From a virus (lineage: Duplodnaviria > Caudoviricetes), in the IMG/VR virus record IMGVR_UViG_3300006162_000242, positions 1 to 61,105 of that record: a DNA stretch of 61,105 nucleotides. The stretch is one strand, 5' to 3'. Both the position numbers and the translations under genes were made by a program. Positions 2,530 through 60,660 of this stretch are shown piece by piece. Within the stretch, counting starts at the first letter, position 1; the number at the start of each line of letters is the position of its first letter. The notes beneath the pieces are model-generated. The model searched no databases, was not told the DNA's origin, and was given only the letters and a program-made list of their open reading frames with translations.

Positions 2530-3461
2530 ATTATTTGCGACAATATTTCTGGAATGTGGTTTATTTCCGTATATTTTATTCGAACCAATTCAATGCCCTT
2601 TGCCGCCGCATAGTTTGTTTTGAACGAATCTCTCCATTGAACGTTTGCCAAGTCTTTGGCAGTCGAGACATAGTTTCCCAACTTTCTCCCACATATGAAG
2701 TGTTGATTGCCATCATATTCTACAAGAATATTCTTATGTGGAAGGTAGAAATCAAACTTCAATAGCCTATTTGTCGTTGGATTTCGGCAATCATCAAATG
2801 TCTTTTGATTGACATATTGAACGCCATTCTTATCTAAGAATGTCATTATTTGTTGTTCGCCCTTAGACAAACGGCATTTAGGACATCCACAACTATCCCG
2901 ATGTAAATGAAGATGTGGCGTTTGCCAAAATGCTCCGTGACGTTTGCACACTATCTGTAGTTTTTGATGTTCTCCCTTATAAACGGCATTGGAATAATCA
3001 TAGAGATTCCCATGAATTTTGGTAGCATCAATAATAAAATCCGCTTGACTTTTCCGCCGTGCATTGGCTGTTTTTATAAACCCACATTTTATACATCCCA
3101 CACCATTTAGATGAGTATTCGGACGTTGCTCGAATCTTCCGTGGTCGGGGCAAATGATTGTGACAGGCTTTAGTGCTGCCACATATTCAACCGCCGAATA
3201 ATCATATTTGTCATTATGTATGAGCCTCGCCTTACTAATGAAATCCTTAGTATTAGAAACGTGTTTTCCACTGCATAAATGGCACCCACACCCCCGCAAA
3301 TGTGAATTTGGCTTCTGTCTGAACTCGCCGTGAACAGGACATATTATTGTCACTTTGTCTTTGTTGTCTTTGCCATATATGGTTTTACTATAATCATATT
3401 TGTTTTTATGAATTACAGTTGCCCGTTCAATAAATGATTCCGCAGTTAATTTCTCGCTCAT
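2526..3461 (-). mobile_element. Putative homing endonuclease: DUF723-like Zn repeats plus C-terminal PD-(D/E)XK/Vsr-like nuclease
   Basis: Three FI..A..IH..KYDYS...ICPxHG.F.Q.P..HL.G.GCxxC repeats; SKGE, FDFY, VEYDGNQH; start taken at MSEKL. Confidence 0.75.
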
Positions 3462-3923: not shown

Positions 3924-4723
3924 ACAACAATGCTCGCTACGCTTATGTCATCCGAGTGAGTAATGCCTTCCTTCAAACATTTCCGTTTGAATGCTGCAAT
4001 CCGCCGCTGAACAAACTCACCCTCAAAGTTTTTGTATCCCGTGAATTCTTCGATGAGTTCGGAATACGAAATCGGGTCATTATTGGAATGACGGAAACTA
4101 TTGATGCCATCCGAGATTACCGAAATAACATCCCCCTCTGTGACATCACACGAAAACACGTATGGTTCGAGCGGTGTTCCATTGATTTGAATGGTCTTGC
4201 CATTGGTGGTGTGACCAATTTGTTTGACATTATTCTCAAGGCAAAGGTATCCCGCCTTGCGGTTAGGGTCAAGACTGTAGGACAGGTAATCGGGTGCTCC
4301 ACTTGTGAGATTGATATGCACCGTGTTAACGCCTGTGTTTTTACGATGCACCAACACGCCGTCACCATAGAGATAGGCATTTAGTTTCTTATTCTTATCC
4401 ACCATCGCAATCAACAACGTGGCATCCAATGCCTGTGGATGTAAGGTAGGCAGCATGTCAAAAATCCGTTTGGCAGTCATGATGGTGATTGCACCAAACG
4501 TCTTGGGGTCATTCATTGCATCGGTATCTTGACCGTGACGGAGAACAGTATCTTCTGCTGCCTTAGCCAATACCCGTGCTCCAAAGTCAACGTCGGGGCT
4601 TGCCGAGCATCCATCACATACAACAGCGAGTGCATTCCCAAATTGGGCGTCCACCCACCCCAAAGCATAATCCTCACAGGTGATATGGTCTTTACCAATG
4701 TAATAAGTGCTATTTGCGTTCAT
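3920..4723 (-). CDS. PP2C-family protein phosphatase (YegK-like)
   Basis: CED, VVCDGCS, DATLL, YGDG, ISDGI and HSDDIS motifs. Confidence 0.85.
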   Translation of the reverse strand: MNANSTYYIGKDHITCEDYALGWVDAQFGNALAVVCDGCSASPDVDFGARVLAKAAEDTVLRHGQDTDAMNDPKTFGAITIMTAKRIFDMLPTLHPQALDATLLIAMVDKNKKLNAYLYGDGVLVHRKNTGVNTVHINLTSGAPDYLSYSLDPNRKAGYLCLENNVKQIGHTTNGKTIQINGTPLEPYVFSCDVTEGDVISVISDGINSFRHSNNDPISYSELIEEFTGYKNFEGEFVQRRIAAFKRKCLKEGITHSDDISVASIVV

Positions 4724-5127
4724 AAATCAATGTGCTCAATTTCTTCTGTTTTGTCATAGCATCCCAAGTCACCATCCCATTCGCCCTTGGGGTCTGGCAA
4801 TAAAGTTTTGATATGTGCCTTGACTCGGGCAATCTCTTCGGGCAGTCCAATTTCAAATGGCATCGCCTGCAACTTTTTAAGATGCATCTGATAAGCTTCT
4901 AAAACTTCGGAGTTCATATATTCAATATCGGGAATCATCTGCTGGAATGTAAGGGGGCCATTGAACTATTATCTGTTGGCGGCATTCAGGGCAATCAACA
5001 AAATGATATATTGTCCCGCAGACATCATCCGTATCTCGTTGAACATCGTGACCATCATATTCAAATATGCATTGGCATCGTTTGCACGTTGCTTTACAAG
5101 GATTCTGGAGACCATGTTGAATGATTT

Positions 5128-53817: not shown

Positions 53818-54111
53818 TTATCTGCGAACTTCTCGCAAAGCTCCCCCGATTGGCCGAGGAGATTCGCAACAAGGGTTGCAATCGGGCCTTGGGTCAACAA
53901 CACAAGGTTCGCCACACTCGGGAGCAGGATATTCGTCCATCGTTTTATTCACCGCTTTCGCAATGAAATCCTTCTCCACCGCATCAGGATTCTTGTAATA
54001 CCGCTCGATGTTTTCTGCCAACTCACGGGCGGAATTAAAAACCACTGTTTGGCATCCCACTTTGCATACAAATCCATTTAGGACTGGCTTGATAGTAATT
54101 TCTCGTATCAT
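53818..54111 (-). CDS. Small hypothetical protein
   Basis: I..VLNGF..KVGCQ..VF; directly upstream of the RNA array. Confidence 0.6.
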   Translation of the reverse strand: MIREITIKPVLNGFVCKVGCQTVVFNSARELAENIERYYKNPDAVEKDFIAKAVNKTMDEYPAPECGEPCVVDPRPDCNPCCESPRPIGGALREVRR

Positions 54112-54119
54112 ATGCGAGT

Positions 54120-54147
54120 ATTATAGACCATCCGCCGCAAATGTCAA
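54120..54147 (-). promoter_or_regulatory. Consensus sigma70 promoter that could drive the RNA array and DUF2828
   Basis: TTGACA-16-TATAAT. Confidence 0.7.
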
Positions 54148-54507
54148 GTGCTTTTCGAAAATTTCTGCATTTTTCTTTTTGCCAAAAACTTCTGCACGGG
54201 TCAAGGCGTCATCCAAACTAAATTGGGCTTCCCGAATCGGATGAGTTACAGGCATCAACCCGCTATCTCCTGCGAGCACCATCGCCTTACGCAACTCTTT
54301 GTCGGCTGCGTGCAAATGGGCAATAATACCTTTGGCTGCTGTCTGAACTTTCGTCATCGTGGCAATACAATACCACAGGCTGTAAAACTTGTCAAGAGGA
54401 GATTTTAGCGTTCTCTCTATTTGGGCGAGACTCGGGTCTCATTTACTACATATCAGCCAAAAATAAAAAACACAAAAATATTTGACTTTTTTCATTAGCG
54501 TGGTATT

Positions 54508-55059
54508 ATGGCCATAATGATTTCACATAGCCCGACTAAAGACCGAGTAAAAAAAGGCAAAGGCGAAGAATTTCTCATTGCGGATAAATGGAAACTTCAA
54601 CTGGCAAAACAGGGAGCAACTCTCGATGAAGTTGACGAACAACAAGATATGCATGATAAAGTTGACCGAATTCTCACTACGCAAAAAGGAACTAAATTCA
54701 GAGTTCAGATTAAGTATAGAGAAATCGGGGAGGACGTTCTGGTAGAACTCGTAAAAAACATAAATACATGGGAACCCGGGCGTGACATGGTTGGAGTTGC
54801 TGATTTATATCTATGCGTTGGACTCGACAAGGTGGGTCGTTTGTATTGGACCAAACACATAAAGCCCGATGCCCAAGCTATCATTAATTCATTGAAGCAA
54901 AAAATCGAAGAGAATCCACATGTGCCGTGGTGGTATCCTGATGCCCCATATAACAAATGGCAAATCAATGTTGGAATTGATAACTATAGCGGCACAGTGA
55001 AAGTAAGGGGATACTTTTCCGTGGATGCATATACACATCAAAGTTTTCGCAATCTATGA
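54508..55059 (+). CDS. Putative PD-(D/E)XK nuclease
   Basis: G..GEE, D.HDKVD.........VQIKYR. Confidence 0.55.
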   Translation: MAIMISHSPTKDRVKKGKGEEFLIADKWKLQLAKQGATLDEVDEQQDMHDKVDRILTTQKGTKFRVQIKYREIGEDVLVELVKNINTWEPGRDMVGVADLYLCVGLDKVGRLYWTKHIKPDAQAIINSLKQKIEENPHVPWWYPDAPYNKWQINVGIDNYSGTVKVRGYFSVDAYTHQSFRNL

Positions 55060-55096
55060 TTGAACCGTATTTCGGTTCAATCCACATCCCAAATAT

Positions 55097-56116
55097 TTAC
55101 TTCTTCAACAGCTTTTTCCAAGCTTCTTTGGCGTGTTCATTCCACTCTCTCAATCCGTTACGATTGGCGGAATGAATACCAAATTGCTTGCCTTCCCAAG
55201 CAGCTTCAAGCTTCTTTACAATGTCAACGCTATCAGTGCAACTGGCTTGATAAAGTGGACTTAACCATTCGATTTCCTTGGACCCGACGATTGGCACGTT
55301 AGCATATACAAAATCCGCAGCAACAATATCAAAGGTTTCTGAGAGAGATACTTGCAATCCCAAATCCATTGTGCGAACAATTTTAATAAAGTTATGCCAG
55401 TCCAACCATTCATGGACTTGCAACTTATTACCAGACGATGCAAACAATGCTTGAATGTTACGCAAGGTCGGCTCACCATTGGATTCAACTCTTCCCGAAT
55501 TGATGTGATAGGTTATCTGACGACCGACTTTCCTTCCAAATGCAATTGCCGCCATCGCCTGAATGAGTTGATTTTTTAAAGGTCGGATAGCACCAAAACA
55601 TCCGATGTTTATATTATCATGGCAATGGGATATTGAGTTGGGTGCTGCCTCAATTTCATCTTTTGGCATATAAACGTTTGGCGCATATACTGTTCTAACT
55701 CCCAAAGCACCTTCAAAATCATTTACCAATTTTTCTGCATTGCACGAAACTTTGAATTGCGGATACCTGACTCCAATAGCCAAATATTGAACAATCCATT
55801 CAACCGCTATACCTTCGCTTGAAAGGAATGGTGTGTTGCTGTGCAATCGAACATACCACTTCACAGTCGGATGGAGTGGAATAAGTTGTTCAAACTTCGA
55901 CGGAACAACCCATAATGCTTCAATGAAAACATGAGTTGGCTTATATTTGGACACTTCACGGTCTATATCGTTATTATCAACGACTTCGATGAGTTTACTT
56001 TCATACCCCATCTCATCCAAAGCGTTACACAGAAAACGGCATGAGTTAAGCAGGCCGTATGATACTCCATAAGTAGAGCGTTTTTTGCAGATAAAAAGTG
56101 TGCGAATCTTGTTCAT
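55097..56116 (-). CDS. Glycosyltransferase (GT-B / GT4-like)
   Basis: GCFGAIRPLKN, DLGLQVS.SETFDIVAAD.....PIVGS. Confidence 0.75.
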   Translation of the reverse strand: MNKIRTLFICKKRSTYGVSYGLLNSCRFLCNALDEMGYESKLIEVVDNNDIDREVSKYKPTHVFIEALWVVPSKFEQLIPLHPTVKWYVRLHSNTPFLSSEGIAVEWIVQYLAIGVRYPQFKVSCNAEKLVNDFEGALGVRTVYAPNVYMPKDEIEAAPNSISHCHDNINIGCFGAIRPLKNQLIQAMAAIAFGRKVGRQITYHINSGRVESNGEPTLRNIQALFASSGNKLQVHEWLDWHNFIKIVRTMDLGLQVSLSETFDIVAADFVYANVPIVGSKEIEWLSPLYQASCTDSVDIVKKLEAAWEGKQFGIHSANRNGLREWNEHAKEAWKKLLKK

Positions 56117-56184
56117 GCCCTATAAATATAGCCATCATTATTGAGAAGAGAAGATGTCGTCATTTTTTCACACAAAAATAAATG

Positions 56185-56213
56185 TTGACACCAAACCAGA
56201 GTTATGATAGTAT
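56185..56213 (+). promoter_or_regulatory. Sigma70-like promoter with extended -10
   Basis: TTGACA-17-TAGTAT preceded by TG. Confidence 0.7.
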
Positions 56214-56240
56214 TGCGGCTCAATTAAAACAAAAAACTCT

Positions 56241-56684
56241 ATGAATCTATCACAAGCTCTCAAAACAAAGAATCGCCTCGCCGGTGAATTAGTTCGCCAA
56301 CAACAAATTCTTCAGCGGGAAAATGCCCGCCGCTCCGACAGTGTGTCAGGAGTTGACTGCAAAGCAGTGTGGGACCGCATCCTGAAACTCTCCGACGAAC
56401 TCGGAGTCATCAAAGGTAAAATCACCACCGCCAACATTGGCATCTATCCTGCTCTCGAACGGATGGCGGAATTGAAGTCTCGAATCTCCTTTATCCAAGG
56501 ATTGCAGAAGCGGGAAGGAACCGAAGTGACCTTCGTGGGTCGGGACCAAGAAAAGATGGAATACACTTGGACCTCATTCATCAATCAAGAAACCTCGGAT
56601 AAGATGGTGCTCGAACTTCAAACCGAGATTGACAAACTCCAAGACACAGTGGACACCTACAACGCCACCACGGAAGTTGGCTAA
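56241..56684 (+). CDS. DIP1984/DUF6847-like coiled-coil protein
   Basis: MNLSQALK.K.RL, I..AN, LQ..ID.LQ..VD.YNA.TEV signature. Confidence 0.7.
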   Translation: MNLSQALKTKNRLAGELVRQQQILQRENARRSDSVSGVDCKAVWDRILKLSDELGVIKGKITTANIGIYPALERMAELKSRISFIQGLQKREGTEVTFVGRDQEKMEYTWTSFINQETSDKMVLELQTEIDKLQDTVDTYNATTEVG

Positions 56685-56690
56685 ACATTT

Positions 56691-56904
56691 TGTGGGCAGT
56701 TTGGGAAAATGATGGTAGGAATTACCTGAGCAATCATGCCTTGAAGAAAGGCTATAACTTTAAAAATGACAAAGAGAAAGATGCCCCGCTTCGGCGGCTC
56801 AAACTTAAATTCTCAGCCTGTCAAACTTTAAAAATTAAGAGTCAATAATCAAACCTCTTCTTTGCCTCGTATGCCCGAGAGTAGTTGACCCAAACTGTTC
56901 CACA
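56691..56904 (+). ncRNA. Candidate ~214-nt structured RNA with heptad repeats
   Basis: Terminal stem UGUGGGCAGUUUGGG / CCCAAACUGUUCCACA; central CCGC-UUCG-GCGG; 7-nt periodic tract. Confidence 0.65.
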
Positions 56905-57101
56905 TTTCTTTATGATTTCTCGCCTGACTTTAATACGCCCCTGCAAACACCATAATAATCTTCGTGTTGGCAGACCTACCCCGTGTTATTATTGCCACCG
57001 CAAGCAGCTAATTGACTCATGTTCTGGAATTAAACCAGAAGAACGACTCCTTCAAGCCATCTTCGGGGAAGAACGCCACATCGTTCGGCGATAATTTCCA
57101 T

Positions 57102-57129
57102 TTGACAAATCATGTTGCCGTGTTATAAT
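57102..57129 (+). promoter_or_regulatory. Consensus sigma70 promoter (leaderless prepilin-like gene)
   Basis: TTGACA-16-TATAAT with TG extension; ATG at 57136. Confidence 0.8.
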
Positions 57130-57135
57130 AACGGC

Positions 57136-57465
57136 ATGATAAAAAAAGTCAAAGCGTTCACCTTGATTGAAATGCTGGTAGTCCTTGGTATCATTTGTAT
57201 TATCGCAGCAGTTATTCTTCCTGCATTCGTATTCCTCAAGCGACATACCCAACAACAGAGCGTCACATACCAAGTCGGGGAGGCAGTCTATATTGACACC
57301 CTCTGTATCACAGGAATCGTGAATGGCGTCAACAATTTGTATCAATGGCCCCGAGTTTCTTTGCTTATCAAAGGAACCAATGGTCTTCCATCCCAACTCG
57401 AACTGGTAGATGTTCGACTACTCAAAAAAGTTCCCCCTTCCCCACAAAGCGAATGGACACACTGA
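57136..57465 (+). CDS. Prepilin-type N-terminal cleavage/methylation domain protein
   Basis: KKVKA-FTLIEMLVVLGIICIIAAVILPA. Confidence 0.85.
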   Translation: MIKKVKAFTLIEMLVVLGIICIIAAVILPAFVFLKRHTQQQSVTYQVGEAVYIDTLCITGIVNGVNNLYQWPRVSLLIKGTNGLPSQLELVDVRLLKKVPPSPQSEWTH

Positions 57466-57590
57466 TGCGAACGACTAACAATGGATGGCTACTGGCATTA
57501 ATACTCGTGTCGTTCGTTCTACTTGCAAAATTCAAATCGAAAAAATAACCCCTTGACTTTTTATAAAACCTCTGCTATCTTTACACCACT

Positions 57591-58880
57591 ATGGCAACAC
57601 TGACCAAAGAAGTTCGACTGATTAAGGCCGAGAACGGCATTGACCCCAAAACGGGGAAGCCCATCAATTCCTACAAGTATTGGAACGCCAAGCTGTATGA
57701 TGACAGCAATTGGAGTGCCGAGTGGGGTCGTGTCGGCTGCGAAAACCCCGACAGCGGAACATGGAATGAAAGCAAGAAAACGATGGATTCCGTTGTTCGC
57801 TCCAAATTGAAAAAGGGTTACACCGAGCAAAAGACAATCGGTGAGGCGGTCGTGTCTTCTGGGTCAGGTGCCCCCGTCAAAAACACCGACCTTCACGCCA
57901 TTGCCAAAGCTCAAATTCTCACTACTTCAAATCCCACTTTGGACCGTCTTATCAAACGATTCGTTGACGCCAACGTTCACAAGATTACGTCGAGCACCCA
58001 AATCACCTACAATACCACCACGGGGTTGTTCACCACTCCCCTCGGTATTGTCACGATGGACGGACTAACTGAGGCTCGTAATTTGCTTGCCAAAATCGCT
58101 CCCCTTGTCCGTTCCCGCAAATTTGGTCCTGACACCGACAAGATTTTGTGTGATTATCTCCGCATTATCCCGCAAGCGTTGGGAATGAAACGATTCTCCA
58201 CCGAGACGGTCATCCCCGATGACAATGCGGTGCAGAAACAGAACGACTTGATTGATTCTCTCGAATCCAGCTATCAGGCTATGACTTCGACGCCTGCAAC
58301 CAAGACACCCACGGGCAAGCCCCAAGAGCAGGTGTTCAAAGTGGATTTGGATATTCTCAAAGATGCTGCCGAGCGTTCCCGCTTGGAACGGTTCTTCGAG
58401 ACCTCGAAAAAGCATCAACATGGCTATGACAATGTGCGTGTCCGTGAAATTTTCAAGGTCACGATTCACGATATGGCCAATAGCTTCGAAGCCAAAACCA
58501 CTCCCATCAAGGAAGTATTCCACGGCACAAGCCAAGCCAACTGTTTAAGCATCCTTAAATCAGGGTTGAAGGTCAGTCCTCCCTCGACCGCTGCCATTGC
58601 AGGAAAAATGTTCGGCAACGGAATTTATGGTGCCATCAACTCCACCAAGTCACTTGGTTATACTTTTAACCGTTGGGGCCAAGGTGGAGTCGGCGATGCG
58701 GGATGGTTGTTCGTCTGCGATTTCGCAATGGGTAAGATTTACACCACCCAATCAAGCTGCAATAAACCATCTGGCTACGACTCGGTATGGGCCAAAGCGG
58801 GTTACAGTCTTGCGAATGACGAGTTGATTGTCTATCGCAACTCTCAAGCCACCATCAAATACCTTTTGGAGTGCAAATAA
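57591..58880 (+). CDS. WGR-domain PARP-like ADP-ribosyltransferase
   Basis: WGRVG...K.KKGY; helical linker (Y...IP); FHGT, SIL..GL, GKMFGNGIY, KS.GY, YDSV, NDELIVY (H-Y-E triad). Confidence 0.9.
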   Translation: MATLTKEVRLIKAENGIDPKTGKPINSYKYWNAKLYDDSNWSAEWGRVGCENPDSGTWNESKKTMDSVVRSKLKKGYTEQKTIGEAVVSSGSGAPVKNTDLHAIAKAQILTTSNPTLDRLIKRFVDANVHKITSSTQITYNTTTGLFTTPLGIVTMDGLTEARNLLAKIAPLVRSRKFGPDTDKILCDYLRIIPQALGMKRFSTETVIPDDNAVQKQNDLIDSLESSYQAMTSTPATKTPTGKPQEQVFKVDLDILKDAAERSRLERFFETSKKHQHGYDNVRVREIFKVTIHDMANSFEAKTTPIKEVFHGTSQANCLSILKSGLKVSPPSTAAIAGKMFGNGIYGAINSTKSLGYTFNRWGQGGVGDAGWLFVCDFAMGKIYTTQSSCNKPSGYDSVWAKAGYSLANDELIVYRNSQATIKYLLECK

Positions 58881-59163
58881 CAATATGTGTATCTTCGGAC
58901 ATAAATTTGGACCAATGGATGTCAACCGCATCCAATACTGCATCCGCTGTGGCAAAGCCAATCAGGTGCCCATTCCCCATCCTTGTGCGAGCGGCCACGT
59001 GTGGGTGGATGAATACACCCAACAATATAAAAATACTTACACCGACGGACTGACGGGTGCCCGCCGTGAAATCACATCCATCACATACTTTCAGAAATGT
59101 AAAATCTGCGGACACAAACGCAGTATCGAAATTTAACAATTCAACATTTAAACACACAAAACT

Positions 59164-60660
59164 ATGCTAGTAAAAAAATCAATCGTAGAAAAATGGTATC
59201 ACCGTGATAGCTTCGTCTATCGTAACTTCTGCTATCTGTTTGTCAATCCGCTGTGGGAAAAGCGTATCCCCGAAGGCTTTACAGTATGCCCATACTTCTG
59301 GATGAGTATGTTCTCCTTGCTGATTTTCCGCCCGTTCTTTGTGGCCCCAATCAAATATATTGTGCTGCCAATCATCAACGCCATCGGCAAACCCGCTCAT
59401 GCGGCAGACAAGGCCATTTATAATGCCATCAAATCAATCGAATTCCTTGCGATTGACCGAGATTATTTCAAGGGGAGCGGGTTCTTTCTGGTGTTCATTG
59501 GATTACTATTGTGTGCTGCCATAACTCTTATCGGATTTGTATTGGTTGGGATTGCTATTATGGCTTATGTCACCCTTGCGACCACCAACCTCGGCGTGTT
59601 TACATTTTATAGCATGTTGAGTTTCGCAATCTTATTCGGCATCATTTGTCTCCACAAACTGTTTACTAAAACCAAATGCAAAACGATGTATTATCTCGTT
59701 GTATGGGCGGTGATATTCGCCATTTCCGCATTTGTATTCGTTCCCACGGAAACTGCGGCCATCATCGGAAACGTCGCATCATCAATCGGGCATGTATTCG
59801 CATCCATTGCCATCGGTATTTGGTCGGGCATCGTTGCATCTTCTATTTTCTTATGGGCATGGACAAAGTTCATCTTCTTGTGGAAACCCATTGCCGCCTT
59901 TATGCTTCCGTGGTGGAGTTATATTGTCGGTCTCACAGTCCTCGGATGGCTGGTTGATAAAATCAGTTGCTATTACGCCGCCAAAGAAAACGAATACATC
60001 CGCAAAACAAACCCAAATCAAATTTATGCCATCTACCGCAGTGCGTGGATTGAGAATTTCATTACACTTTTGTTGATGAATTCAGCGTGGTCAAAAAATA
60101 GTGCATGGTCGGACGAAATAAGCGATGCATTTATTTACGATGCTGCCAAAGAATTGCGACCAACTTTATTGCGTGCTGCCTTTGAGACGATGTGGAAAAA
60201 CGAGTTGGACAAACTCCAACATGACTATCCCACATTTCCGAAGGAAGTCTTGAACAATGTAAAAGCGGATATTATGGGCACCGATAGTCGGTTCAGGATT
60301 GTGCGGGATTCACTCATCAATAAGTATCCTGATTTTCCCACAATGGATGTTGACAAATTCACTAAAATCTTCATCCAAGAAATGGTAAACAATGTCGCCG
60401 TTCAAAATTTGGCACTTCATTATAGGAAACAGTATCAAGCCGAACAGGCGAAGGCCGAGGCAAAACAAACCTCATGGTCTCATACCACCTGCCTCAAGGT
60501 CACAAACAACATCGCCAATGCCGTAAAGACGGTTGTCCGTGGACTCAAAACCACGGTCGTTCAAACAGGCACGTTCTTCGCTTATTTGTGGATGCTTGTC
60601 AAGGCGAAGAAACAGGGTGCCTGCCCGTATTTCCGATTCACCGATAGCTCCGAAAAATAA
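59164..60660 (+). CDS. Multi-pass membrane protein
   Basis: Seven or more hydrophobic segments; CPYF motifs near both ends. Confidence 0.7.
   Translation: MLVKKSIVEKWYHRDSFVYRNFCYLFVNPLWEKRIPEGFTVCPYFWMSMFSLLIFRPFFVAPIKYIVLPIINAIGKPAHAADKAIYNAIKSIEFLAIDRDYFKGSGFFLVFIGLLLCAAITLIGFVLVGIAIMAYVTLATTNLGVFTFYSMLSFAILFGIICLHKLFTKTKCKTMYYLVVWAVIFAISAFVFVPTETAAIIGNVASSIGHVFASIAIGIWSGIVASSIFLWAWTKFIFLWKPIAAFMLPWWSYIVGLTVLGWLVDKISCYYAAKENEYIRKTNPNQIYAIYRSAWIENFITLLLMNSAWSKNSAWSDEISDAFIYDAAKELRPTLLRAAFETMWKNELDKLQHDYPTFPKEVLNNVKADIMGTDSRFRIVRDSLINKYPDFPTMDVDKFTKIFIQEMVNNVAVQNLALHYRKQYQAEQAKAEAKQTSWSHTTCLKVTNNIANAVKTVVRGLKTTVVQTGTFFAYLWMLVKAKKQGACPYFRFTDSSEK

Follow-up and report, generated by a model that had tools for sequence, protein, structure and literature searches.

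In the IMG/VR virus record IMGVR_UViG_3300006162_000242, a gene for a small protein is followed on the same strand by a stretch of about 200 nucleotides whose ends can pair with each other and which contains a tract of short repeats phased at seven nucleotides. This raises the question of whether the stretch is an RNA in its own right and, if so, what it has to do with the protein encoded next to it. The record comprises 61,105 bp and is referred to as the window; all positions given are those of the whole stretch. Since CheckV rates the record as 16% complete, the window is probably a piece of a phage of several hundred kilobases. The gene for the 147-aa, predominantly helical protein occupies positions 56241 to 56684 of the plus strand (stop codon TAA at 56682-56684), and the element begins 6 nt past its stop codon and extends from 56691 to 56904, again on the plus strand. 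An earlier note on this DNA had described a closing stem of about 15 bp 6 nt past the stop, about 214 enclosed nucleotides, a UUCG hairpin and a phased tract, and each of these elements is present in the sequence. Comparison with related loci shows that the element is a conserved RNA gene rather than a product of chance and specifies a structured non-coding RNA of about 210 nt, and that this RNA family is new, widespread and tied to one protein family. The finding is therefore larger than first noted, as it concerns a family of RNAs that has not been described and that comes with a protein partner of its own.

The RNA in the window measures 214 nt from one arm of the closing stem P1 to the other and is matched by our first covariance model with 161 bits (E 3e-33). 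P1 pairs positions 56691-56705 with 56889-56904 over 15 bp, including one bulged U and one G-U pair, and is followed by a U-rich stretch. It opens into a conserved internal loop with GAA on the 5' side (56706-56715) and a nearly invariant AGUA on the 3' side (56880-56883), which may resemble the loop E or sarcin-ricin motif. Inside P1 the rod probably continues as P2 and P3, which are made up of unrelated sequences in different members and rest on duplex folds of single sequences and on sequence reading rather than on a common alignment; z-scores of these duplexes are mostly weak (-3.5 to +0.9). In the window the 5' strand of P3, GAGCAA at 56728-56733, would pair with UUGCCUC at 56862-56868, an assignment outside the covariance model that is based on duplex folds and alignment reading. 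The rod encloses an irregular hairpin (56768-56822) consisting of P4 (GAC 56768-56770 with GUC 56820-56822), P4' (GAGA 56774-56777 with UCUC 56811-56814) and P4'' (GA 56780-56781 with UC 56799-56800), capped by P5, a CCGC-UUCG-GCGG hairpin with a UUCG loop at 56783-56798. Eight heptad units follow between 56799 and 56855 and read TCAAACT/TAAATTC/TCAGCCTG/TCAAACT/TTAAAAA/TTAAGAG/TCAATAA/TCAAACC. The end of the tract is marked by a conserved CUCUUYUUG in the alignment consensus (56855-56864) that leads back into the rod. The minimum free energy of the whole element amounts to -60.3 kcal/mol, compared with -46.1 +/- 4.3 kcal/mol for 200 dinucleotide shuffles (z -3.31), none of which folded as well. 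A 12-nt repeat, AACTTTAAAAAT, occurs at 56756-56767 and at 56824-56835, where 0.01 copies are expected. It had been pointed out before as occurring on both sides of the hairpin and is indeed present twice, though it is absent from all of 132 other loci and is thus real but not a conserved feature.

Related loci were collected by alignment-based searches, as searches for loci with the single protein sequence gave no relative. They stem from viral contigs of up to 368 kb (20 loci), from metagenomes (126 loci, of which the best 80 were kept) and from contigs of GTDB genomes (27 loci, one of them on a 2.6-Mb contig). Within 300-400 nt past the genes, the same plan can be read almost everywhere: a closing stem of differing sequence, a hairpin, a G-poor tract of the CAA type and CUYUU. 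RNAalifold, applied to a MAFFT seed alignment of 26 RNA sequences that was not fitted to any model, found five helices, namely P1 with 14 pairs, P4, P4', P4'' and P5. In this seed, 92.1% of the cells are paired as opposed to 78.1% with shuffled partners (none of 500 shuffles as high), pairing falls to 32-52% when the partners are slid by one to three columns, and 20 of the 29 pairs change on both sides. An alignment of 48 sequences, which was fitted to the model and leans towards the modelled structure, yields 90.6% paired cells against 72.5% with shuffled partners, and no shuffle out of 500 came as high. Both sides change in 24 of its 29 pairs, among them all 14 modelled pairs of P1 and all six of P5. 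P1, P4 and P5 thus covary. P4' and P4'' hardly vary, only one of their six pairs changing on both sides in the 48 sequences, and P4' (GAGA with UCUC) competes with a pairing of AAAGAG with CUCUUU; as both are almost invariant, we prefer neither. Cells with G-U pairs outnumber those with A-C by 149 to 36, which identifies the strand of the RNA as that of the gene.

Covariance models were built in three rounds, R1 to R3, and run on 95 non-redundant sources out of 128. The 33 sources dropped comprise 19 that were identical or nearly so to one retained, 12 with less than 260 nt past the gene, one cut at its 3' end (L047) and L052, in which no RNA was seen in the 282 nt past the gene. Matches rose from 39 with R1 to 48 with R2 and 65 with R3; R1 alone, run on all 128 sources, gave 52 and three matches at E <= 1. 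The 65 R3 matches lie in 64 of the 95 sources, all on the plus strand and all 3' of the gene with the exception of L090:1232-1325. We consider this upstream match, obtained with R2 as well as R3, an artefact, for it coincides with a perfect simple repeat, (CATTCAA) x 8.9, and this genome abounds in repeats of the kind. The locus lies on a 462-kb phage contig and features perfect intergenic repeats of TTAACAT x 4, CATTCAA x 8.9, ACACTC x 8.2 and ACAAC x 14.4 at 1088-1115, 1265-1326, 1415-1463 and 2996-3067, respectively, of which the CATTCAA array mimics the heptad tract. R3 left 31 sources unmatched. In 19 of these, a gapless closing stem lies no more than 400 nt from the gene and is significant at p <= 0.05 when compared with 100 dinucleotide shuffles (counting two sources with partial matches, 21 of 33), and several of the others carry a tRNA-like insert or an open reading frame between gene and RNA. 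The terminal stem described in the earlier note is found at most of these related loci as well. RNA length varies between 155 and 245 nt with a median of 210 nt.

No known family of Rfam matches this RNA. Rfam 15 gave no match at gathering score in the whole window, a search of 56600-57000 at E <= 10 returned a single chance match on the opposite strand, and in 20 related loci Rfam recognised tRNAs and one group II intron and nothing at the RNA. ARAGORN found no tRNA or tmRNA gene in the window. Identities as tRNA, tmRNA, 6S RNA, signal recognition particle RNA or Y RNA were rejected on these grounds. In the literature, judged at the level of titles and the beginnings of abstracts, no account of this RNA or of the function of the protein was found, and the terms 'ncRNA' and 'non-coding RNA' are absent from the main text of a review on jumbo-phage genomics (PMC7824862).

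The most telling property of the family is the spacing of its adenines. In the window, the strongest period of the tract is 7.25 nt, and its power was matched by 7 of 2000 dinucleotide shuffles in the band from 6.75 to 7.75 nt and by 28 of 2000 at any period between 3 and 15 nt. A scan of the family in 56-nt windows over periods of 3-13 nt placed the strongest period within 6.75-8.0 nt, mostly at 7.25 nt, in 72 of 82 RNAs, 23 of which come from clades that the covariance model does not detect; for 71 of the 82 the periodicity was significant at p <= 0.05 against their own dinucleotide shuffles. Of 101 control segments from upstream of the genes, 11 had their strongest period in this band and five were significant. 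The periodicity postulated from the window thus withstands comparison with shuffled sequence there and in most members of the family, of which the 7-nt phasing is a hallmark. In the core clade, the AA of the units is invariant at RNA positions 113/114, 120, 127, 135/136, 142/143, 149/150, 156 and 163/164, that is every 7 or 8 nt, and the same positions are the most conserved ones over 65 sequences. The consensus unit UCAAAnn is replaced by UCAAGGn or GCAAACC in GC-rich clades. A strict detector that asks for a chain of at least five [UCG][CU]A[AG] matches plus a flanking stem was positive for 52 of 116 loci as compared with 6 of 116 reverse complements and 4 of 105 upstream segments; it proved too strict for distant clades and the period spectrum was used instead. 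The first three or four units overlap with the 3' strand of P4 to P4''. Here the UC of the early units is predicted to pair with GA of the conserved purine strand GAYAAAGAGAAAGAU, leaving the adenines unpaired. That UCAA-like words at the start of the coding region might form an autoregulatory site was considered and dropped, since synonymous codons vary freely there.

Gene and RNA travel together. The RNA is located 3' of the gene and on the same strand at identities of the encoded protein from 92% down to about 25%; the gap between stop codon and P1 has a median of 7 nt and does not exceed 50 nt in 47 of 59 loci. When R3 was run on five whole genomes or records (a complete phage of 368,758 bp with terminal repeats, two partial phages and metagenome-assembled genomes, MAGs, of 9.1 and 3.9 Mb), each had exactly one match and all five matches adjoined the gene. 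An 8.4-Mb Planctomycetaceae genome contains two copies of the gene, both followed by closing stem and tract and one of them then by a terminator-like hairpin. The two-part protein-RNA module proposed in the earlier note is thereby strongly supported by comparative sequence evidence. Its carriers are huge phages and genomes of Verrucomicrobia or Planctomycetota. The GTDB loci mostly belong to MAGs labelled Verrucomicrobia (Opitutaceae, Akkermansia) or Planctomycetota (Gemmata, Fimbriiglobus, Pirellulaceae). Protein searches turned up two huge phages only, LR756511.1 (595 kb) and LR756500.1 (462 kb), and as both are uncultured, no cultured carrier of the clade was found.

The surroundings of the module vary. 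In 18 of 128 loci the flanks contain tRNA genes, sometimes in same-strand arrays of five to 15, and at some loci no more than about 25 nt separate the 3' end of the RNA from the start of a tRNA. A gene for the RNA ligase RtcB is the immediate 3' neighbour of the RNA in 15 of 128 loci, comprising a Verrucomicrobia-type clade and locus L080, and starts 12-35 nt past the RNA where mapped. The RtcB proteins encoded after the RNA (L102, 3182-4744, and 14 further loci) bear an N-terminal extension of about 100 residues that begins with MNMEIKARDLIAAGW; their ligase core was recognised by eye. At other loci, an intrinsic terminator or the promoter of the next gene comes after the RNA. Hairpins resembling the T arm of tRNA (GGTTCGAnTCC) occur near the RNA in L015 (around 3090-3145), L095 (around 575-690) and L011 (around 3015-3050). 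In L095 a whole tRNA-like element separates gene and RNA, while in L015 and L011 the hairpin is situated downstream of the gene, either at the 5' part of the RNA or within it. Jumbo phages are described in the review cited above (PMC7824862) as supplementing their tRNA sets with RNA ligases, RtcB among them, by which cleaved tRNAs are rejoined. The company of tRNA arrays and rtcB points to a role in the maintenance of tRNA or other RNA, or in conflicts over RNA damage between huge phages and their Verrucomicrobia or Planctomycetota hosts.

What kind of protein accompanies the RNA? The window protein has no match in Pfam (E <= 0.1), PHROG, NCBIfam (E <= 1) or PADLOC, and a comparison with PDB sequences, as a single sequence or as a profile, gave nothing significant. 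Its AlphaFold2 model (pLDDT 92.6) consists of four helices and a beta hairpin. Foldseek ranks chains A and C of PDB entry 3kdq first and second (TM 0.62 and 0.69; E 0.014 and 0.082; probability 1.00), with the next PDB match at a TM of 0.36. This entry is an uncharacterised protein of Corynebacterium diphtheriae released in 2009, which we take to be the DIP1984 protein. The NCBIfam model NF038048 (DIP1984_fam) is matched over its full length by seven of nine divergent homologues (E 5e-7 to 0.12; 12.5-30 bits against a curated cut-off of 70 bits), and PF20935 (DUF6847; cut-off 27 bits in Pfam) is weakly matched by four of the nine (13.8-17.4 bits). Neither the window protein, which misses both models, nor the divergent homologues reach the profile cut-offs for the DIP1984 family or DUF6847; what they share with the family is the fold of its solved representative and a size of about 150 residues. 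The combination of fold match and sub-threshold profile matches means that the label 'DIP1984-like' given in the earlier note is right in the sense of a remote relationship, not of membership. Among viral fold models the closest represent uncharacterised proteins from Vibrio phage Vp_R1 and from Caulobacter phage CcrColossus (TM 0.65 and 0.62; E 0.002-0.02).

The protein is widespread and strikingly conserved. It has relatives in 323 clusters at E <= 0.01, with 68-92% identity to the window protein among the 120 matches listed of these 323, its own entry aside. A profile of 34 diverse members finds 2145 representatives (clusters at 50% identity) at E <= 0.001, 1580 at 1e-10 and 547 at 1e-30. 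In the 34 sequences, which go down to 25% identity, residues A6, L7, K8, K10, R12, N28, K58, E77, G93, Q134, D138 and N141 are invariant, and the resulting N-terminal motif ALKxKNRL sets this clade apart from the DIP1984 family proper. The protein is predicted to form a homodimer. The prediction scored 0.62, against 0.01 for the best of three controls; among proteins solved as pairs, 20 of 30 get as far as this mark, and among those solved as single chains, one of 23. The runs agreed in at least 94% of the contacts, with a pLDDT of at least 90 for the partner. The predicted interface is formed by residues 21-114, leaving the N-terminal ALKxKNRL outside.

As both RNA and protein are undescribed wherever they were sought, they probably form an RNA-protein particle of a kind not known so far. 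Our favoured proposal, to which we would assign an even chance, is a particle in which dimers of the protein read the UCAA heptads. It is suggested by the family-wide constants, which are the periodic adenines in the RNA and, in the protein, the basic N-terminal motif together with a few residues of the core, and by the inheritance of gene and RNA as a unit. The 5' and 3' ends of the RNA pair as a long rod built from P1, the GAA/AGUA loop and, probably, P2 and P3, which encloses the purine-rich irregular hairpin (P4, P5) and about eight UCAAAnn heptads. In such a particle, the rod would shield the ends and label the RNA as one to be processed out of mRNA or of transcripts of tRNA arrays. The neighbouring protein would assemble with this RNA into a ribonucleoprotein, its homodimers recognising the phased UCAA sites, with the invariant basic ALKxKNRL motif as the likeliest contact to RNA, and several dimers could load side by side on one RNA.

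Several observations weigh against this proposal. No recognised RNA-binding domain is found in the protein with Pfam, PHROG or NCBIfam. The dimer prediction may owe its good score to the likeness with the solved structure 3kdq, and it is silent on RNA. The alignments behind the larger covariation counts are those fitted to the model. In 12 of the 59 loci, 89-1099 nt of other sequence, including open reading frames, intervene between gene and RNA. Partial pairing is predicted for the first three or four heptads, so that not all eight units would be available as free single strand. Finally, a significant 7-nt period was detected downstream of none of five canonical DIP1984-family genes (p 0.24-0.71), three of which were obtained from 201 genomes and two from viral loci, so that the heptad reading may not be a property of the whole superfamily. 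Closing stems can be made out by eye behind these canonical genes, and it is plausible that members of this fold family have RNA partners in general. A G-rich word, GAGGGTGGGTACGGGGA or a close variant of it, is found about 170-320 nt past the canonical genes of L129, L132 and L133, which suggests a different conserved RNA partner at these loci.

A comparable arrangement is the gene order rsr - Y RNA - rtcB of some bacteria. The module shares with it an end-paired non-coding RNA situated between a partner gene and rtcB and the occurrence in phages as well as in bacteria, Ro60 (Rsr) with Y RNA being the subject of two papers (PMC4201824, PMC7790460). It differs in that the neighbouring proteins give no match to TROVE/Ro60 and the RNA none to the Y RNAs of Rfam, in that the core family lacks a tRNA-like domain, and in that rtcB follows the RNA in only the 15 of 128 loci mentioned above. 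A bolder version of the proposal, which we put forward tentatively and consider rather unlikely, envisages a new class of ribonucleoprotein, common to huge phages and cells of Planctomycetota and Verrucomicrobia, in which each heptad would seat one protomer, as the earlier note had imagined, such that the RNA would act as a ruler for about four stacked dimers and the whole would work in conflicts over tRNA or RNA damage. If this were true, the particle could for instance serve RtcB-type repair as a scaffold or guard, or it could trap an anticodon nuclease, and DIP1984/DUF6847 would turn out to be a superfamily of proteins dedicated to RNAs, with a scope like that of Ro60 and Y RNA. In bacteria and phages, it is rare to find a non-coding RNA that is conserved, covaries and has a protein partner of its own, and the earlier examples 6S RNA, Y RNA, CsrB and OLE each opened a field. 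The eight phased sites represent a legible design that makes stoichiometry and recognition directly testable. The module also provides the first functional handle on the DIP1984/DUF6847 fold, of which a crystal structure without assigned function has been available since 2009, and its tRNA-array and rtcB setting ties it to the little-understood RNA-repair side of the conflict between huge phages and their hosts.

Other explanations share part of this evidence. The RNA could be a sponge or decoy whose phased UCAA sites titrate or mislead a factor of the host, be it an RNA-binding protein, an RNase or an anticodon nuclease, with the neighbouring protein as a helper or merely co-inherited. The CsrB/RsmZ and CrcZ sponge RNAs likewise display one short motif many times within the same non-coding molecule. 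Their motifs, GGA in hairpin loops or CA in an A-rich setting, are irregularly spaced, and they serve global regulators encoded elsewhere, whereas the heptads are phased and the partner gene is next door. A decoy would fit the G-poor, A-rich, multi-site character of the tract and the constancy of its UCAA core while the protein diverges to 25% identity. It would also fit a position among tRNA genes and beside rtcB, where conflicts over RNA cleavage are played out according to the jumbo-phage review (PMC7824862). A strict one-to-one adjacency to a gene would however be superfluous for a decoy of a host factor, the module is present twice in a bacterial chromosome, and no candidate host factor has been identified. 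We therefore regard a decoy as unlikely.

Seen from the hut and trp operons of Bacillus, the arrangement would rather be a switch acting in cis, in which the protein encoded upstream binds the phased sites and thereby controls termination or translation of what lies downstream. HutP and TRAP recognise a short motif that recurs at a constant small interval, which for HutP is UAG every 7 nt, and HutP is encoded just upstream of its RNA. The order of regulator gene, periodic RNA and downstream gene in our loci fits that of the hut operon, and the tract matches the two systems, whose readers are oligomeric proteins, in its short motif at a fixed short period. Downstream of the RNA in the window, an open reading frame for a Cys-rich protein of 60 residues with the motifs PRxCRxH, CYYC and PEERLLxxIFG begins 7 nt past P1 (56912-57094, plus strand; no Shine-Dalgarno sequence visible). 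Such a reading frame of 52-100 codons is present in 19 of 30 core-clade loci, counting the window, and starts 5-13 nt past the RNA match in 18 of the 19 and 37 nt past it in one, placing its ribosome site in overlap with the 3' arm of P1. U-rich sequence past P1 (at least five T among the next 12 nt) in 50 of 59 family members would be in keeping with a switch, too, and P1 together with this tail may act as a terminator of transcription. On the other hand, the downstream partner varies between the small reading frame, rtcB, an isochorismatase-like gene with its own promoter, tRNA genes and intrinsic terminators, in contrast to the fixed downstream operons of HutP and TRAP, and the next larger gene in the window has a perfect promoter of its own. 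The leaders that decide on termination in those systems are short and unstructured; the closed, multi-helix fold of some 200-210 nt far exceeds what a switch needs. The motif here is UCAA, the folds of the proteins are unrelated and Pfam detects no HutP or TRAP family. Taken together, a cis-acting switch appears quite unlikely. The Cys-rich protein, for which no Pfam or PHROG family and no word-sharing homologue was found, may be a third part of the module.

The phased adenines might alternatively serve the RNA itself by making contacts of the A-minor type within one copy or between copies, without being read by the protein. That the invariant positions are AA doublets, that the rod with its GAA/AGUA loop is conserved and that the RNA resides in phage tRNA arrays speaks for such a self-contained architecture. 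These arrays are also home to GOLLD and ROOL, structured RNAs which are probably released by tRNA-processing enzymes like other stable RNAs from phage tRNA clusters. Rfam contains both and finds neither here, and our RNA is much smaller and tied to one protein gene. A purely architectural role leaves this tight linkage unexplained, no receptor helix of matching periodicity was found, and we judge it to be very unlikely.

The type III toxin-antitoxin-like pair that the earlier note had considered, in which a protein toxin would be neutralised by a repeat RNA, has in its favour that a protein gene adjoins a repetitive RNA, which is all that the module shares with ToxIN, AbiQ, CptIN and TenpIN. 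Type III antitoxins consist of tandem repeats of about 34-37 nt located 5' of the toxin gene, whereas the unit here is 7-8 nt long and the RNA lies 3' of the gene. Moreover, PADLOC and Pfam give no match to ToxN, AbiQ, CptN or another defence protein, the predicted fold combines a bundle of helices and a beta hairpin, and phages themselves carry the module, so that the chances of this interpretation are slight in the extreme. The same holds for an element acting at the level of DNA (iterons, an origin or a packaging site) or for mere chance: short phased repeats can be protein-binding sites in DNA, but long-range helices covary, the excess of G-U over A-C cells fits one RNA strand only, the orientation to the gene is fixed and shuffle controls are exceeded.

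Some features of the window remain to be mentioned. The gene for the 147-aa protein is preceded by a sigma-70-like sequence, TTGACA-17-TAGTAT with a TG extension (56185-56213, plus strand), which agrees with the consensus in 10 of 12 positions. The earlier statement that the gene has its own promoter is borne out to the extent of this consensus match. A canonical intrinsic terminator was not found between 55900 and 57300. GenBank phages show no DNA similarity to the region 54000-60000, and the stretch was found in two freshwater DNA sequencing runs and in no RNA run among those listed. Past the Cys-rich reading frame, a perfect sigma-70 consensus (TTGACA-16-TATAAT, 12 of 12 positions, with TG) precedes a phage gene for a pilin-like protein of 117 residues with the N-terminal prepilin methylation motif PF07963 (57102-57465, plus strand). 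Two genes downstream of the RNA, at 57591-58880 on the plus strand, a protein of 429 residues with WGR, PARP regulatory and PARP catalytic domains is encoded, a phage-borne PARP-like ADP-ribosyltransferase (PF00644, E 1e-22; phrog_23333, E 2e-49).

Two related loci deserve a remark. The array of 15 phage tRNA genes at L011 includes, at about 5025-5096, a tRNA-Pyl with CUA anticodon predicted by ARAGORN that may be an amber suppressor. On a Planctomycetaceae contig (L128), a match to domains D1-D4 of a group II intron (RF02003, 107 bits) is located at 4140-4279, 1.2 kb downstream of the module.

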